Made by a program: the position numbers and the translations under genes
Notes under the pieces: generated by a model
Database searches by the model: none
What the model was told of the DNA's origin: nothing
Seen by the model: the letters and a program-made list of their open reading frames with translations, nothing else
Shown: positions 6,461 through 56,362 of the stretch, piece after piece
Layout of the letters: each line of letters starts with the position of its first letter
How positions within the stretch are numbered: position 1 is the stretch's first letter
Assembly (NCBI GenBank): GCA_951406725.2
Contig: OX597814.1
Location: 25,358,001 to 25,422,000 of the forward strand
Reading direction: 5' to 3'
DNA: 64,000 bases
Origin: Octopus vulgaris
Lineage: Eukaryota

Positions 6461-6475
6461 TTTTCTCTGTGTATC

Positions 6476-6542
6476 TTTCTGTTGAAGAGCGTAGGCTCGA
6501 AACGTTAAAGACTTGTTTTATTTATATTTCCTGAGCGCCATA
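6476..6542 (+). ncRNA. Hammerhead-ribozyme-like motif (type I, variant core) in a Penelope-type pLTR remnant
   Basis: CTGTTGA-A-GAGC(GTAG)GCTC-GAAA-CGTT...AGCG-CC; A6 and the cleavage triplet are mutated, so probably inactive. Confidence 0.55.
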
Positions 6543-6607
6543 CTAATACAATTGTTTGTTTGTTTTCCACCTGCCTTCGTCTTTTGTCTATTTTCCTAAA
6601 GCTCCCC

Positions 6608-6664
<57 letters not shown>

Positions 6665-15939: not shown

Positions 15940-16150
15940 ATATAAAGTTAATCCAAACAAGAAAGCACCAAAAAACACAACAACGCGAGGGCGTGGAACA
16001 AATATAGTATCATTGGACGCTCAAGAAAGAAGGAAAGAAGGAGGGTTTAACGTTTCGAGCGGAGCTCTTCGTCGGAAACATAGGAGAAGGAAAGATCCAG
16101 AGAAGGGAAGACAGAGGAAAAAAATCGCCAACGGTACACACGCGGTCACG
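15940..16150 (-). ncRNA. Penelope-type pLTR remnant containing a type I hammerhead-like fold (16012-16080)
   Basis: Minus strand: CCGACGA-A-GAGC(TCC)GCTC-GAAA-CGTT...AGCG-TC; flanks resemble 25290-25470. Confidence 0.6.
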
Positions 16151-20431: not shown

Positions 20432-22757
20432 CACTGGTCAACAAAATTAATTGCATTATAATCATTATGAATGCAAAGCAACGTTTGTAGACTAATTTTT
20501 CATGTTGATTTCAAAATTTAACTCCATTTGTATGCAACACGTATCAGCTTTTCAGTAGATACATGCAAATATTTACATATTTGCATATATGAAATCATCA
20601 ACGTAATAAATAAGGACATTTATTTTTTTAGAAAGTAAATGAGTTTATTGAGTTAAAAATCATCTCTATCATTGTACAACGAAATAATGCACAAAAATTG
20701 GGTCGGGCAAAACAAATAAAATTAGAACAGAGTTAGAAACATTGTGATTTGGATTTTCTGCGGTGTTCCTGATCTGGTTGATCATAGTAAAGTGTCCAGC
20801 AGTAGTCAGACAGCATACTATCATTCCAGAAGCCTTGGTACCGTTTCTCCATAGCACTAATGTCCTGGTGAAATCTTTCACCATGTTCATCAGACACTGC
20901 TCTAAGGTTATCTGTAAAGAAATACAGATGGGAGTCCAAGAAGTGAACTCTCAGTGACATGGAACAACCCATTGCTGAGTAACATTTCAAAAGATTCTTG
21001 ATGCCATCTTTGTAGTCCATTGCCTTCTTGTTACCCAAGAAATTCTCACAGATCCAATTGAAAGCATTCCAGGCAGGCAGTTCCAGTTCATCCTGTGTTG
21101 TCGTGAAATTGACACCTTTGCGTACTTCTCTAATTTGGGGTCCGACAAAGATATCCTCTTTCAACTTCACCTGTATGATTTGGGGTAACTTTTCTACAAT
21201 ATACTCAAACCCTTTGGCATTTCTTTTCCCTAGTGTCTTTACAAACTGTTTCATCAGTTCAAACTTCATGTGCAAAGGCGGCAGTAGGATATTCCATGGA
21301 TCTACAAGAGGTGTATTCTTCATGCTAGACAGTCCTGGCTGGTATGATGTACTTGTCTGCCAGTTTGATTCCAAATAATGCCTGTCAGTTGCCCGACTAT
21401 CCCATGAACACAAGATACAACTGCATTTCGTGAAACCTGACTGCATTCTCATTAACATTCCAATGACTTTTAAGTCTCCAGATCTTTTTCATGAGTATTT
21501 TTCATAGTCAATGGTATGAAGTGAAAGCTTCATATTCTCATATCATTCAAGAAGATGAATTGAGTGTGCAATAGGAATGGAGGGCTTCAAACTACCATTA
21601 TGGAGAAGTACAGCTTTTAAATTTCGTTTTGAAGAGTCAATAGACAAATGCCACTCTGCAGGATCATGATTTTGTGATAAACATTTGAAAAGTCCATCGA
21701 TTGCAAAAGCAAAGTGATCCTTCAACAGAATAACATGTTTGTAGACCCACATTTCTCTGTCAAAAATAAGTTATACAAACACTGTGCTCTAGCCGTTACT
21801 TCTCCTTCAGTCTTGATGCCAACAGATCTGCATTATCTTTTGAGAGGGATACATCTCTGACAAGGTCATTCAATTCAGCTTGAGAAAATTTCTGGAGTTC
21901 AAAGCTATCGTCATCAGCCACATAATATTCCTCAGCAGCGCTATCATAACAGTCAGCATCATGATCTGATGTTTTAATACCATTATTTGGTGGAACTGGA
22001 ATTGGCAGACTTCCATTGTGAGGCACAGATCTCATTGCAGAATCCAAATTGGAATACACAATTTTGTGTTTATTCTTCATAGAAAATCCTGTGACATTTA
22101 CTTTGCAAAAATAACAGTCATTAAAATGGTCTTTCAGCTGCCTCGATATTGGAATGTAAGCCATTTGAGCAAGCTGAGCAGATAAAATGTGGTGCCCATA
22201 ACTTGTCCTGATCTCCAAGAAGACAGTCAAAGTATAGCTTATAAATCTTCTTCTCTGGTGTTATTGTATATGTTTGGGCTTTCACAATAAATTGTCCACA
22301 GACATAGCATAACACATCAGAATGCTTTCTACACTGTCTTGGCATTGTTAATACTGTAAAACAAGTAAGGAAATAGATACAAACGGTTATACTTATATTG
22401 AATTTAAGATGATGAAATAGTTCACCAGACTGGACAATTTGAGATGTTAAAATACCTATTTCAGCAGACAAAATTTGATTGGCTAATTTAAGATGGTGAA
22501 CTATTGCCTCTGAACTATGCAGCAATGAATAATGTAGTTTATTTTAAAGGTATGTTTCATTGATGTAAATGAAATACATGCATACATGTCATTAACTGAA
22601 ATTTCTATATAGTGCATGGGCTAAAACTAAAAAAAATTCTCATCTTGAAAACTGTACGTGATGCCAAAAAAGCTAATTGTATATTTGAGATCAGCATTAA
22701 AAACTACACTAAGTACACCTTGACGTATGCTTCATGAAAAGTACTTGTTGACTAGTC
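20432..22757 (-). mobile_element. Full-length degenerate Chapaev3 (CMC superfamily) DNA transposon
   Basis: TTA|CACTGGTCAACAA ... TTGTTGACTAGTC|TTA: 3-bp TTA TSD and long imperfect TIRs (about 120 bp) enclosing a transposase pseudogene. Confidence 0.9.
20733..22345 (-). pseudogene. Chapaev3 transposase, frameshifted into at least 4 ORFs
   Basis: MPRQCRKHSDVLCYVCG..LGDQDKLWAPH; DHFNDCYFC; EWHLSIDSSKRNLKAVLLHNG; GFTKCSCILCSWDSRA; LLPPLHMK; IFVGPQIR; MSLRVHFLDSHL; AVSDEHGERFHQDISAMEKRYQG..MLSDYCW. Confidence 0.9.
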
Positions 22758-23999: not shown

Positions 24000-24802
24000 T
24001 CGAAACACCCCTGTCGCCTGCCATTTTCGCTAGCCGGCCACTCCACCTCATACCTCACCATCTCCGGCCTTGCCCTAAACCATGAATTCACCAACTATAG
24101 ACTCTGCCTGGAACAGCACTACATTTTCACTCTACATACTCAAGTACCTTTCGGACTAAACACAACCCCCACCTTTCTGTGACATTCCCCTCACATATTT
24201 TTAAAAAAACATTTTATTCTATTTTATTTGTTTATTTTTTTAATTTATTTCTGTTACTGATTTATATATATATATATAATCTTTTTCATTTTGCTATTAT
24301 ATTTAATTTTCATTTTTTTTTATTATTTCTTTTGTATTATTTTTTTATTTTTACATGCCTTTGTTTTTTCATGTTTTTATTTTTAAATTGTATTTTTAAT
24401 TATTTCACATACACACACCTTCATACGCACGCACTCACACTCATATATACACACACATCCACACATACCTCATACAAATGCACGGCCACAGCCACACACA
24501 CAAACATACACAGTAATAACAACACCAACATACACACACTTTTGTCATCCTGCCCCTTAGACCCTATCACACACCACATACACAACCCTTACACCTTATC
24601 AAACACCACACTCACACCCTACCACACACCATACGCAAATCTGTATGCCCCCCCCCACACAAACACATGCACGCACTCCCACACACACATACATGCTCAC
24701 CAACACGCATAATACCTACACCCTTACTTACACCAACGCGCACACACACACTCCTCTTCACCCTTCTCTCCTCGCACATGCACACACACACGCATGCACA
24801 CA

Positions 24803-24833
<31 letters not shown>

Positions 24834-25470
24834 TCACACACACGCGCACGCATGCACACACACACACACATAGCACATACACACAACACACATACATAGT
24901 ACACACACACTTGCAAATATATATACATGCACGTACATACACTTCCACATACACACCCCTTCACACATCTTTCAAACTGCCGCTCACTCACTATTAACCA
25001 CTCCGTCTACGCACACACAAACACACAAACACACCCACCCATTCACACACCTTTCACTATAGTTGACTTATGATTGACCTTTCAGAGCGGCATATACACC
25101 CACACATAGACACACACAAACACACACAGAGTTGCTACGGCACACACACAGTTACTACAACACGCGCACACACACGCTACCATACATACACATGCTACTA
25201 TACACACACACACACCAACCACTTTCACACTATCCTGTCCCAGAAACGGCTTCCTCTTTCTCTTTCCACTTCTGGTCACTTCAGAAATGTAACTGCACGT
25301 TGACTGATGGCGATTTTTCCTTCTTTCTCTTTGGACTCTCCGGTTTCTGACGAAGAGCTATGCTCGAAATGTTATCAACAACTCTCTCCCTTCATCAAGC
25401 GTCAAATTACTATATCTCTTGTTTTCTTTTTTCATTGTTTTTTAATTTGCTTGTTTACTTGAATTCATTA
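24000..25470 (+). mobile_element. Penelope-derived unit 1: GIY-YIG C-terminal remnant, (CA)-rich spacer, hammerhead pLTR
   Basis: NTPVACHFR..GHSTSYLTISGL at 24000-24080, an AT-rich stretch and about 0.8 kb of ACAC-rich DNA, then the ribozyme fold at 25342-25408. Confidence 0.55.
25342..25408 (+). ncRNA. Type I hammerhead ribozyme candidate (best-preserved copy)
   Basis: Stem I GGTTT/AAATT; core CTGACGA plus an extra A; stem II GAGC/GCTC; GAAA; stem III TGTT/AGCG with G.U pairs; GTC cleavage triplet at 25401-25403. Confidence 0.65.
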
Positions 25471-25519
25471 TACATGTGTGTCTGTGTGTATCTCTCTCTC
25501 TCTCTCTCTCCTTTCCTTC

Positions 25520-26670
25520 GGCCCACTAAATTTATGTTCACTTTTGATATCAAAAGTTTATATACAGTGATCCAAAGCAAAGAAGGACTTCTTGTTGTGC
25601 TCAAACACTTTCTATCACATCACCGACTCCATTACCTGCACTTCTAGTAATGTCGTTTACTGCATCTTCTGCTTTCTCTTTCCTTCCCCGTACAGCGGTC
25701 AAGCAGGACGCCGCTTGGCTGACCGGTTCGCGTAGCACTTCTGAGACACCAGACTTGACAATGATACCCCGGTCTCGCGCCATTTCTGCTCTATCGGTCA
25801 TTCACTGTTTGCGTTCGGACTGTCTTTGCACAAGGGCTATCCGGAATCCCGCCTTCGCTGTGAACAAGAATTAATCTTCTCTTCGCCCCTTTGAGTCACA
25901 TAGGCTCAAATCCTCTTTTCACCTGACACTAACCTCATCTCCTCTCTTCATTTAAAACCAACCCCACACCACACCACATACACTAGCACTGACCACCTCT
26001 CAGCACCCACACCACGCACCATCATCCATACACACACACACACAATCTTCGATAGCGTCAGCACACATACCACTATATGAGCAGCCAAACACACTGTTTA
26101 ACTCAGTACACACACCACACACCATCATGAACAGCCCCACACCAACACAAGTAGATAATACCTGAACACAGACAATATATACATACACATGCAAAATGCA
26201 TTAACACACGCAACGTAGATAGACAAAGATAACTTTCACCCACATACAGACACCATATACACACACTGTTTGGTCACAGACACGCGCGCGCATTACACAC
26301 GCACATATGTCACTTGCCCCTATTCACACGTACACACTCACTCACACCATTTTCACATACACACATACACATGACCACTTTCACTTGTTGCAATCACTAG
26401 CACTATCATTATCTCGTCTTCATTCAAACTCTTTTTTTATTATTATCTCCCTTTTTTCATCCTCTTATTCCAATCCCTTGCTATGTTGGACTGTTGAACT
26501 CTACACGTGTTTTTCATTCTCTCTCTGTTTATTTCCTCTTATTCCTTTCTGTTGAAGAGCATAGGCTCGAAACGTAAGAGACAATTACATTTTCTCAAGC
26601 GTCAAACTAATACACTTGCTTGTTGTTCATACACCTGTCTTCATCTTTTGAGTTTCTATAAATTTTAGCT
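25520..26670 (+). mobile_element. Penelope-derived unit 2: RT motif fused to GIY-YIG, (CA)-rich spacer, hammerhead pLTR
   Basis: FTFDIKSLYTVIQSKEGLLVVLKHFL (RT) joined to ITDSITCTSSNVVYCIFC..PYSGQAGRRLADRFA*H..NDTPVSRHF..GHS (GIY-YIG); fold at 26546-26606. Confidence 0.75.
26546..26606 (+). ncRNA. Type I hammerhead-like motif (CUGUUGA variant core)
   Basis: TTT-CTGTTGA-A-GAGC(ATAG)GCTC-GAAA-CGT...GCG-TC-AAA. Confidence 0.55.
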
Positions 26671-26747
26671 ATATATATATATATATTTACATAGTTATAT
26701 ATACATACCTGCTTGTATGTATGTATGTATGTATGTATGTATGTATG

Positions 26748-26791
<44 letters not shown>

Positions 26792-40978: not shown

Positions 40979-43703
40979 CAGGGGTTCCCAACCTCGTCCA
41001 TGTGGACCGCTAGGTGGTCCACAGGAAAATCCAGGTAATCCACAGGAAAATTCAGATGGTCCGAAGAAAATTTTCTGTAGTCCACCTGAAGAATTAAATT
41101 TTTCCGTACATGCACATGTCATGCAAACGAAATATTCCTCATCGCATATGCATGAGCACATCCGAGTGCACTCATTGCCTATTGGATGATTAGCTATCCA
41201 ATCATACAGACGTGTACAATTGGATCCACATTTGCGTACATTAAAAACGCAAAAAATTGTATATTCTCGGCCAGTCAATGCGATCGTGTTTTCTACCTGA
41301 CTTTTGAATTGAGGATTACTAACGAAACTGCAGTTCTTACAGCTTACCCAACATATAGTATTATCTCTCCATATACATACATTTTTACGCAAGCGTTAGT
41401 CTAATTGTAATCTGTAGATATTTTGCTGTCAGTGTTATAGAAAAACGTTCCCTTAATTCTTCCTCCACCGACACGGAAAAAAGATTCTGTAGCTGATATC
41501 ATGAAGATTATATTAAATATAGTTTTGTATCCAGTGTAGAAGATCCTTTTTTACCACAGCGTATTATCTACTCAAACGTATTAACTAACGACTCAATGGA
41601 ACCCTAGAAATTGTTGTATCATCTACAAAAAATCCATCCTGGTTTACTTGGCAAACCAAAGCATTACTTCGACGAATACCATCACAAAAAAAAAATGTCT
41701 CATCTCCATCATTCAAAAACTTCCTCGCCCATACTAACAACCGTTCTGGCCTGCAGGCGTCCTATGACATTTCGCTCATGATAGCAAAAGAGGGTAGCCT
41801 ACATACCATTGGCGAAGATCTGATTAGGCCCTCCATATTTGACACATATAAAGTCGCTAATGTGCCAAACGCTGCCTCAGTCTTAGTAAGTATTCCACTT
41901 TCAAACAACATTGTATCTTCCCGCATTTGTGAAATGGCCGAAGATGTCGAATCCATAGCTGTAGAAGACTTGCGACACTGCTGATTCTCGTTGACGGTGG
42001 ATGACAGCACTTTCGACAACAAATGTGTTGTCCTTGCCTTTACTCGCTATGTGAAAGGTACCACAGTTTGTGAAAACCTACTCTTTATGAAAACCGTACT
42101 GAAAAACATGGGAGAGACGATCTACAATGCAGTCATGGATTATCTTACTAAAAATGGCATTGATACCCTCAACCTCATATCAATATGCACTGACAGAACA
42201 CTGTCTATGTTTGGCAAATCCCAGAGTTTGTTGCCAGATGGATAGATTTTAATCCCGTCTTCACAATTCATTGCATTATCCATCGAGAAAGCCTGATAGC
42301 AAAAAGAACTGGAAATAATATATTTTCCGAAACCTAAGACTTAATTGCTTCCACAGTAAAAAAAAAATCAAAAGATCTGCTCATCAAAACAGGCATTTTC
42401 AAGAAGCATGTGAAAATGAAACGTTGGACCATCAGTTGTATTCGACAGATATACACTGGATATCAATGGGAAGGTGTCTCAGATGTTTTATGGCACTTTT
42501 CGATAAAGTCATCGAGTTTCTTCAACAGACTGATCAAGCTATGACAGCATCACTTTCTCAAAAGAAACCTGTAATTTTTTATTTACATAAAATCTTTCAA
42601 AAACTTAATGATCTCAATATTTCTTTACAAAAACAAAACATCAACATTGTACAAGCCAGACACTTGATAAGGGCGTTTGTGAATAAACTCGTTCTTTGGA
42701 AACTTCAAATTGAAGATCATAACTTTCTACAGTTCGCAAACTTAAAAAACTGTTGTAGTAGATAACGACTTGCCTAAATATATAATCGGGTATCTATCTT
42801 TCCTTCCCAAAAACTTCAATATTCGTTTTGAAGACCTTTTGGCTTTAAATATCCCAATTTTTGTGGACTCCCTTCACATAATGTCTATGAACGATATACT
42901 TGTTCAACTAGAATGCGTTCAGATGGAGCTATGTGAGGCGACGGTAGATGATAATCTGCGCAAATCATCTGAAAACAACTGGGTCGAGGCTTGGTTGAAT
43001 CATATTCTCACGAATATCTAATGCTGTTTGACCAAGTCGAGCCTTTTATTATAAATCTCCCAACATCCTACTTGGCTGAAAAGGGATTTTCCCTAGTCCC
43101 CCACTCGTTCACGAAGCAGCTGAGGCATTGGAACCTCGATAACAATGCTGATTAGAGAATTCGCTTGAGCCAAAAAGAGCCAAGGATTTCTCAGTTGTGG
43201 ATAAAAAGCAAGCCCAAGGGTCTCGCTGAAGGCTACTTGACGTTTTTCCCGACGACTTGTCGCTAAAATTTTTAAGTTAATTCAAATTGTTGTTACATTT
43301 CCACAAACGTTTTCACAACCTTTTGAACTGATCCCAACATCACTCCTAACATTTTTTGAGTTTACCCTTCACATTGTTACATTTTAACTGTACAGCCTTT
43401 TTTCCTGAATAAAAGGGGGTGTTTTCCTTGACTCAGTAACCTTTTCTATTCGATTCTATCAAATAAAGCTTTCTTGAGAATCATGTGCATTTGCAAGTTG
43501 GTTTTTGTTATTGATGTTCTCACTTATTTGTTCTCTGTGATGTCCCTTACAAGAACGAGAAGGGAACTTTCATTGCAAAGTGAAAATTATACTAATATTT
43601 ATGAGAAGCAGTTCTTTTATAATAAATTTAAAATTCGAGGTGGTTCACAGGAAAAAATTATCTATTTTAGTGGTCCACAGCTAAAAAAGGTTGGGAACCC
43701 CTG
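40979..43703 (+). mobile_element. Full-length degenerate hAT transposon, Buster/Charlie family
   Basis: Perfect 16-bp TIR CAGGGGTTCCCAACCT; 8-bp TSD ATTTAAAG / ATTTATAG; TCCACAG(GAAAA)-type subterminal repeats at both ends. Confidence 0.93.
41470..43229 (+). pseudogene. hAT Buster-type transposase pseudogene
   Basis: BED-like YHEDYIKY..LTNDSMEP*KL..HL..IHP; HTIGEDLI; IPLSNNIVSSRI; VDDST; ISICTD; IHCIIHRE; LPTSYLAEKGFS; many stops and frameshifts. Confidence 0.88.
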
Positions 43704-54447: not shown

Positions 54448-55629
54448 ACAATAGATTATGGTAGCCTGTTTGATGGATGGCTACCATAGCCAAATGAATT
54501 CAAAGGATATCGAATTCTATTTTAAAGACTATATGTATAAAACCAAAGAGGTTTAGCTACTTCTATTAACTATATATTGATACACTATATCAATTGCCAA
54601 ACAATTAGATTCTAGGGGGCAAATGTTAGCTGCAGTGAAGTTATAAGTCCATCATCCCAATAAAGGCCACTTCATTTTGAGTAGAATATATGAACCAACT
54701 AAGTAACTAGTTTCAACTGAGTCATGGGCAATTATTGTAATATCAAAGGAATCATAGAAATTCTTATTAATTCATGATATAATTGATTACCATTTTACAC
54801 CTGTGCAAAATAATACCTATTTTGGTATTTGTGTTATTTATGACAGACTTAGCAAAATAGATTACCTCTGTTAATATGGGCTAAACAAGTCAGTCATAAT
54901 AATCTCATATGTCAAAATAGGTAGAACATGATTCAGGTTTTTTTTTTTGGGGGGGGGGTTCTGGAAAAGATGTGAGTCAGCTAACTCATTGTATATTGGT
55001 TAAGGAAGGAAAATAGAATAGATTAGAGAATAAATTACTTAGAAATGAAATCTGCATGAAAAACAAAAGGGAAGTCAGTGTCAACATGGTTTGCACAGCT
55101 GTCTGGATTATAACAATGTTGGGTTCAATTTCCTTGGATGGTTCTATGTACATAATTTTGTTTCTTGCATCTAAGCTTGCAAAGTGACTAATTTAATTTA
55201 ATATTTATTTTATCATTGAAAATTTCATGTGTGTGTGTGCGTGTCTGCATAGACATATGTGTGTGTGTGTGCCTGCTCTTGTCTTGACCTTGTATGTATG
55301 ATGGTTGTAAATGATTGTCACTGTCATATAAGTGGTAGCCTTCATTTTCAAACTTCCATCAGAACATGCTCAGCCATGGAGAAATATTACTCTGCTTGGA
55401 AACAGGTAAGGGTTGGTGACAGGAAAGGTTTCGAACAGTAGGCAATCTTCCTCAGCAATTTTTGCTCAACTCCTGCATGCATAGTAAAACATGATGATAA
55501 TGATAATCTGTGGAATTACAATAAATGATAAGCCTGCATTTATGCTGATTATGTCTCGAGTTCAAATTGAAAGAAAACAGCAAAATATCATTTAACTGCA
55601 ACAAATGATGGTTTATGCATGATATATTC

Positions 55630-56362
55630 AGAGAAGATCGTGGGCATTATTCAATTACTCTACAAGGAGTTTTCTTGCCAGGTCATCCATGCTGGGAGAT
55701 TGTCAGAGGAATTCAGGGTCAGCATGGGAGTCAGACAGGGCTGTTTGTTGTCACCACTCCTGTTCCTCGTCATGCTGGACTGGGTCACCAGAATGGCCTA
55801 CGCTACCTCCGGGAAAGGTATTCAGTGGACACTGATGAACAAGCTGGAAGACTTGGATTATGCAGATGATCTTGCGCTACTGTCACATCGCTTGCAGGAC
55901 ATGCAAGATAAGGTAGACCACCTGATAGAAACTTCATGGTGAGTGGGCTTCAGGATCAGCCAGGAAAAGACAAAAGTGCTGCGTATCAACAACAAGCAGT
56001 AAGAGCCAATCACAATCGAGGGGGTACCTGTGGAGGACGTTAGTGAGTTTGTCTATCTTGGGAGCAAGATCAGCAAATCAGGTGGTTCAGACGAGGACAT
56101 CACGGCAAGAAGCAAGAAGGCTTGGTAAGCCTTCGCTATTCTTCGGCCAGTATGGAAGTCCACTGCCATCTCAACTCAAACTAAACTCTGCTTATTTAGT
56201 TCAAACGTAAAATCTGTGTTTTTGTATGGCTCTGAAACATGGAGAGCCACCTGCAGCAACTTCAAGAAGATCCGGACCGTCATCAACAAATGTCTTCAGC
56301 AGATCCTCCATCTGAAGTAGTTTGACAGAGTGCCAAACACCAACCTGTTGGAAAGGGGCAAC
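55630..56362 (+). mobile_element. RTE LINE reverse-transcriptase fragment
   Basis: GVRQGCLLSPLLF...LEDLDYADDLALLSH...EKTKVLR...FVYLGSKI...FSSNVKSVFLYGSETW; a single frame with four in-frame stops. Confidence 0.92.

Follow-up and report, generated by a model that had tools for sequence, protein, structure and literature searches.

The window analysed here, a stretch of 64,000 nucleotides of Octopus vulgaris DNA taken at its full length, carries two adjacent units on its forward strand between positions 24000 and 26670. Each unit is a 5'-truncated copy of a transposable element that retains the CA-rich 3' untranslated region (UTR) and the standard 3' end of its own subfamily, and each is followed by a microsatellite of TA type. 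Their parts are as follows (RT, reverse transcriptase; the basis of each assignment in brackets):

24003-25470, + strand: unit 1, subfamily A
24003..24180, + strand: C-terminal part of the unit 1 GIY-YIG endonuclease, 5'-truncated and frameshifted (homology to other copies, tblastn)
24181..25335, + strand: unit 1 3' UTR of subfamily A, T-rich and then CA-rich (alignment to subfamily loci)
25342..25377, + strand: HH1, hammerhead motif of subfamily A1 (motif and alignment)
25397..25408, + strand: distal YGAGCGY motif with GUC 25401-03, which in subfamily A1 alone might serve as an alternative substrate strand
25409..25470, + strand: standard 3' end of subfamily A (other copies stop at TTGAATTGACTA before a TA run)
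25471..25494, no strand: TA/TG/TC microsatellite between the units, the presumed target of the second insertion (sequence)
25495-26670, + strand: unit 2, subfamily B
25495..25611, + strand: unit 2 RT fragment, 5'-truncated, motif A region, FTFDIKSLYTVI (70-85% identity to the RT of longer subfamily-B copies)
25612..25900, + strand: remnant of the unit 2 GIY-YIG endonuclease, interrupted by stops (matches aa 861-953 of the intact ORF)
25901..26540, + strand: unit 2 CA-rich 3' UTR of subfamily B (alignment to subfamily loci)
26545..26580, + strand: HH2, minimal type I hammerhead motif (motif and alignment)
26581..26670, + strand: distal motif with GUC 26601-03, then the standard 3' end of subfamily B (other copies stop at AAATTTCAACTA before a TA run)
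26670..26787, no strand: (TA)n/(TATG)n microsatellite next to the 3' end of unit 2 (sequence)

The Penelope origin of this DNA, proposed in a first-pass annotation, is borne out by tblastn with the ORF of an intact element as the query, since fragments of the window map onto amino acids (aa) 514-542, 861-953 and 918-967 of that ORF; taken alone, the coding fragments of the window matched no Pfam family. The GIY-YIG remnant of unit 1 (24024-24173, 42% identity over 50 aa) corresponds to aa 918-967, and its TPVxxHFxxxGHS motif, interrupted by a frameshift, begins at 24007. Homology to other copies starts at 24003-04, inside the endonuclease; an upstream continuation is present in 23 of 29 other subfamily-A copies, with variable 5' ends, and is absent from the copy in the window. 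In unit 2 the GIY-YIG remnant (25613-25882) is 68% identical over 93 aa and the same motif reads TPVSRHFCSIGHS from 25766; the RT remnant that had been noticed there is confirmed as motif A, at 25525-25614 (60% over 30 aa, aa 514-542). Unit 2 is an old relative of the intact family, with a DNA identity of about 74%.

The CA-rich spacers lie where they had been placed, and they are the element's 3' UTR because each aligns only within its own subfamily: with a threshold of 150 bits, the unit 1 spacer aligns to 6 of 29 subfamily-A loci and to none of 29 subfamily-B loci, and the unit 2 spacer (77-84% identity) to 6 of 29 subfamily-B loci and to none of 29 subfamily-A loci. The 3' UTR of the intact family is CA-rich as well. 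The earlier suggestion that these elements spread CA-rich DNA therefore stands, the spacers being subfamily-specific 3' UTRs, and this spread is explained without any non-autonomous family. As judged from the other copies compared, both units end at the fixed 3' end of their subfamily, approximately 100 nt behind the hammerhead.

Unit 2 also carries an internal deletion that is its own. It skips from RT aa 542 to endonuclease aa 861 of the intact ORF, with about 955 nt missing, and all 29 of its mates run upstream of 25612 through a CxxxxCxxC linker into the RT (reaching positions -51 to -1499). The junction so formed was spanned by none of the 39 other hits among the best 40 of 781 candidates scored, and a degenerate pattern of it, searched genome-wide with one mismatch allowed, matched the window alone. 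The two sides overlap by 2-3 nt at the junction, where hits stop at query position 109-110 and start at 105-108. A fixed 5' end for subfamily B, considered for hits that begin at query position 73, was rejected: the mates extend upstream, and what breaks the hits off is the deletion particular to the window copy.

The parent of these copies could be examined in a young intact Penelope-like family (locus L220, G000:C2:34638600-34648599, with a monomer of 4478 bp, and loci L221-L239), which forms partial tandems with identical hammerheads of the A6U type described below. A protein search with the element returned many near-identical open frames. Of 20 loci chosen for their long ORFs, 11 form partial tandems in which about 4.5 kb separates two like hammerheads; these loci share 96-99% identity with one another, and the remaining ones are 5'-truncated at scattered points; the intact element is, from these sequences, apparently active. 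Its ORF matches Pfam RVT_1 above the cut-off (E 3e-7) and GIY-YIG below it (E 0.004-0.005), and carries DKG, YIDD and a CxxxxCxxC linker of the CX2-5CxxC type; the linker is present in both subfamilies, deleted in unit 2, and upstream of the 5' end of unit 1. Passages of Craig et al. 2021 (PMC8557442) describe elements of the Neptune/Nematis type as having a single ORF with RT and then GIY-YIG, DKG, a CX2-5CxxC linker and microsatellite targets, with partial tandems that form pseudo-LTRs, a hammerhead in the pseudo-LTR and 5' truncation. The octopus family resembles them in ORF layout, motifs, truncation, pseudo-LTR hammerheads and microsatellite targets, and has the ORF with RT and C-terminal GIY-YIG, the pseudo-LTR tandems, the 5' truncation and the pseudo-LTR hammerhead of an EN+ Penelope-like element (PLE). 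By the features given in those passages its sequence assigns the parent to the C-terminal EN+ PLEs of Neptune/Nematis type, of which the window, in contrast, holds only broken 3' parts of two subfamilies. The targeting of TA microsatellites fits Neptune as characterised there, and is not diagnostic against Nematis.

We conclude with considerable confidence that 24000..26670 consists of two old, broken, 5'-truncated copies of an autonomous Penelope-like retrotransposon, each from a different subfamily. They likely arrived in two separate insertions, and the later one probably hit the TA microsatellite behind unit 1. The stretch is ordinary transposon debris: a new locus of a known kind of element. 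In the mechanism that we envisage, the element's GIY-YIG enzyme would nick TA repeats, and reverse transcription would begin from the fixed 3' end, some 100 nt past the hammerhead, and break off early, such that most copies would comprise a 3' UTR and a hammerhead with variable coding remnants. Every insertion would leave a microsatellite open to another hit; unit 2 would have lost its approximately 955 nt at insertion or afterwards; and each unit would end in the pseudo-LTR hammerhead of its own subfamily, the subfamily B fold presumably being a minimal, dimer-type hammerhead with a predicted cut after GAAACGU-H.

Both hammerhead-like motifs reported at first pass exist (the hammerhead words start at 25347 and 26549, and GTC occurs at 25401-03 and 26601-03), as do both units, but the units are not repeats of one module, and the proposed cut at GUC 26601-03 and the supposed private lesion of the second core did not hold. 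Searched across the 2.8-Gb genome, the motif pattern TTTCYGWNGAAGAGC-N3,4-GCTCGAAACGT has 31,827 exact copies and a reversed control pattern none, which is well beyond what chance would give; 7 motifs were counted in 400 kb of arbitrary stretches, in rough agreement, five of the 7 being already in the profile's alignment. At gathering thresholds Rfam gave zero matches in the window. Folded as single strands, the sequences are no more stable than expected (z +0.4 to -1.2), and for both motifs the minimum-energy structure is something other than the hammerhead fold, the long folds of HH1 and HH2 standing at +0.4 and -1.0 kcal/mol versus -9.3 and -13.9.

HH1 consists of the core CUGACGA (25347-53), an extra A, stem II GAGC/GCUC, GAAA (25366-69) and the proximal triplet GUU (25371-73); in the minimal reading its stem I is down to 1 bp, and U15.2 is present. 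HH2 has the core CUGUUGA (26549-55), the same stem II GAGC/GCUC, GAAACG, the triplet GUA (26574-76) and a stem I of 4 bp. By minimal reading we mean that stem I forms right behind GAAACGU-H, and 86% of cells are paired in this way among 75 aligned copies. At pair 4 of this stem, C-G occurs in 29 and G-C in 22 of the 75 copies, a score reached by none of 500 shuffles; the swap amounts to essentially one or two evolutionary events counted many times, but it follows the subfamilies. The stem is at least 4 bp long in 31 of 36 subfamily-B copies, and of 3-5 bp, with compensatory change, also in A2 and C. The reading agrees with the consensus given in part of PMC4209133: an extra nucleotide after A9, G10.1-C11.1, GAAA, palindromic 15.2-16.2 and UH. 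A permuted hammerhead (types SGC and CSG, as outlined in part of PMC10085705) was considered and rejected, the block order here being CUGANGA block, GAAA block and substrate.

The first-pass annotation had drawn both motifs as type I folds with a long stem III and a cut at the distal GUC. For GUC 26601-03 this fails, as in subfamily B GAAACG is followed at once by the cut triplet and stem I, and the cut of HH2 is predicted from its sequence at 26576/26577 rather than at GUC 26603. The long stem III itself carries no covariation signal (its score was reached by 313 of 500 shuffles); the distal site is GCC in the intact family, and in subfamilies C and D a stem I at the distal site is impossible in 8 of 8 cases. 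In A1, the subfamily of HH1, minimal stem I is just 2 bp in 18 of 22 copies, and the distal reading has GTC in 18 of 22 and a stem I of at least 3 bp in 16 of 22, which keeps the long fold a candidate for HH1; its +0.4 kcal/mol, versus -9.3 for the best alternative, speaks against it. A cut at the distal GUC is accordingly possible for subfamily A1 and HH1 only, as far as sequence comparison can indicate.

The annotation had further taken the non-canonical second core for a sign that this copy may be a relic. The case is the reverse: CUGUUGA is the norm of its subfamily and HH2 keeps its stem I, and it is from the first fold that stem I is lost in the minimal reading. [quoted passage not shown] HH2 and its subfamily have CUGUNGA where the core of the minimal type I hammerhead is CUGANGA. 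The CUGACGA of HH1 occurs in 1 of 22 A1 copies, the majority having CCGAYGA, and this canonical core probably arose by CpG decay of the family core CCGACGA. The motifs are like the minimal type I hammerheads of metazoan PLEs, as these appear in the parts of Cervera and de la Pena 2014 (PMC4209133) used here, in their U-rich lead, short stem I, extra nucleotide after A9, G10.1-C11.1 and palindromic C15.2-G16.2, and likewise in being mostly single, dispersed and located in truncated copies. They differ in that stem II is only 4 bp here, a conserved YGAGCGY lies 25-35 nt downstream, and the core is CUGUNGA, or CCGANGA (U4C) in other subfamilies. Among natural core variants, sections of PMC3088659 describe an A6C of low activity (<0.1 per min) and a U4C that works in vivo, and those sections make no mention of A6U. 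In the literature that was searched, which did not extend to all work on PLE hammerhead variants, we found no A6U hammerhead.

Whether such a motif cuts is a separate matter from the composition of the locus. It is nearly an even call, falling slightly to the negative side, that the A6U hammerhead shape no longer cuts and is kept as a promoter, a priming site or a protein-binding site in the pseudo-LTR, an explanation that concerns the motif alone and is compatible with two truncated copies at the locus. Changes at A6 lower activity strongly (the A6C value above, PMC3088659, in part), and elements without canonical hammerheads spread well according to passages of PMC8557442, where it is also stated as open whether PLE hammerheads do anything. 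Nor do genomic 5' ends pile up at the predicted cut: in approximately 36 distinct loci, counted by eye from the first 100 of 951 overlapping matches, they are spread over the 30 nt tested, and the roughly 7 that start in the A-run behind the cut are explained equally well by TA microhomology. Against a loss of cutting, U6 is fixed while N7 takes all four letters and H17 varies among A, U and C between subfamilies, the pattern of working hammerheads, and stems I and II are kept.

We put forward tentatively, and with rather low confidence, the proposal that this is a currently active autonomous Penelope-like lineage whose hammerhead, a natural A6U form (CUGUNGA), remains able to cut as a dimer. 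Such a lineage would have retained U6 as N7 and H17 drifted, and would have left at least 17,900 copies; in the sister subfamily A1 the cut may have shifted to a duplicate substrate strand downstream, so that a dimer-only hammerhead would have become a monomer with a long stem III. Here is a young intact family with a change at a core position thought to matter, and with sister families that carry other core changes. Should the A6U motif cut, natural hammerhead cores tolerate a wider range of changes, and over half of such motifs in this genome escape descriptor searches; should it fail to cut, a very successful element can do without cleavage and retains the fold for some other function. The intact 4.5-kb tandems would let the role of PLE hammerheads be tested directly.

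Several further observations concern the hammerhead and its surroundings. In the window (25397-25403 and 26597-26603), YGAGCGY followed by TAATA lies 25-35 nt behind the hammerhead, and it is kept in every aligned subfamily. This motif could pair with the 3' strand of stem II, to which it is complementary, and may be an inhibitory switch or a DNA-level signal; 81% of cells are paired (a score reached by 4 of 500 shuffles), a figure confounded by CpG decay and by the near invariance of both sides, and in the 1.34 Mb examined no family combined a different stem II with the distal motif. Truncated Penelope 3' ends also lie elsewhere in the window, at 6467-6647 (+ strand; motif at 6479, nearly identical to the intact young A6U family) and at 15960-16087 (- strand; motif at 16075, CCGACGA, subfamily C). 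A different hammerhead-like family, with the canonical core CUGAUGA and a longer stem II (AGGCTGG...CAGCC), was seen on the minus strand of two other loci (L054, about 2700; L057, about 2600).

How the two units came to lie side by side was judged from their junction. It is bridged by contigs from two public runs with different species labels (3 and 6 differences per 300 nt), and the pair is therefore old and no assembly error. The order of insertion and the target site are inferred, and within the microsatellite a target duplication is unreadable. A single insertion, in which the RT switched template within a B RNA (across the 955 nt) and then to an A RNA, giving chimera and deletion at once, would account for units that abut within 25 nt and for the 2-3 nt overlap at the deletion junction, and complex tandem insertions are typical of these elements (passages of PMC8557442). 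We nevertheless consider it quite improbable: a microsatellite separates the units, as it does behind any independent 3' end, and unit 1 is more diverged from its mates than unit 2 (23%, 17 mates, versus 17%, 28 mates; the comparison sets differ).

According to part of PMC6765202, these elements tend to land in or next to copies already present. In this genome, motifs often lie close together, in no preferred orientation. For the first 100 exact motif matches, 13 of 99 intervals were 2.5 kb or shorter against 3.8 expected under a uniform null that ignores regional density; five of these close neighbours are on the same strand (3 of mixed subfamily) and eight on opposite strands. Within 1.5 kb, 11 of 29 subfamily-A loci have a second motif (4 same-strand, 7 opposite), as do 4 of 30 pattern-picked loci, all opposite and two of them one and the same pair. 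In the four same-strand pairs inspected, the DNA between the units is unrelated and the spacing differs. Elsewhere, two A6U motifs lie inverted 148 nt apart (L177/L178, G000:C1:1878302-1878479), an inverted-insertion structure typical of these elements.

The first-pass annotation was right about the Penelope origin, the hammerhead motifs and the RT and GIY-YIG remnants, but its larger proposal, a non-autonomous retrozyme-like family, is scarcely credible, also when spelled out as a 1.2-kb piece that is cut out, circularised and re-inserted by the Penelope enzyme: the RT-endonuclease junction is private, each unit belongs to a different subfamily, and every part can be placed on ordinary truncated copies of autonomous elements. 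Two hammerhead motifs do lie on the same strand 1.2 kb apart, a monomer with a long stem III can be drawn for HH1, and in tandems an upstream pseudo-LTR is able to drive the downstream unit (PMC6765202, in part). The units, however, are not repeats, and the hammerhead folds are less stable than the best alternatives (+0.4 and -1.0 versus -9.3 and -13.9 kcal/mol, as above). The architecture of the 1.2-kb unit, whose absence elsewhere the annotation had itself named as telling against the idea, recurs nowhere else in the genome, and the supposed monomer represents no family because the RT-to-endonuclease deletion of unit 2 is unique in the genome. Animal retrozymes are described in part of PMC7229834 as tandem repeats of one non-coding unit of 150-450 bp, and in part of a preprint (bioRxiv 10.64898/2026.07.22.740005) with units of up to 972 bp. 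The locus shares head-to-tail type I hammerheads and Penelope ancestry with the non-LTR retrozymes of animals (Cervera and de la Pena 2020, PMC7229834; Li, Clavereau and Pollet 2026; both in part), which are, by contrast, multi-copy tandem repeats of one short non-coding unit, where here a single-locus pair of unlike units retains coding remnants. By two tested criteria the locus is not a retrozyme: the units do not repeat each other, their best mutual alignment being 70 nt at 71% identity, and the putative monomer, rather than short, non-coding and multi-copy, is 1.2 kb long with RT and endonuclease remnants and a single-copy junction.

When two hammerheads act as a dimer, each stem I is built from the 5' arm of one partner and the 3' arm of its counterpart. 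On this published model and the sequences of the arms, a double cut that would free the 1.2-kb piece is unlikely, because the 5' arm of HH1 pairs over 3 bp with the 3' arm of HH2, and the 5' arm of HH2 over 1 bp with the 3' arm of HH1. The legend to Fig. 1 of PMC4209133 is consistent with this geometry. Among the 15 of 78 joints listed for assembled contigs from four runs, no back-joint fell at the locus, a result with no bearing on expression.

Remnants that look like other transposable elements also lie in the window. On the minus strand, 20736-22543 has broken reading frames that look like a DNA-transposon transposase (pieces of 251, 154 and 140 aa); on the plus strand, 41589-43018 has broken reading frames resembling a transposase that we take to be of hAT/SPIN type, and 55571-56207 is a fragment of a LINE-type reverse transcriptase with a YADD motif.
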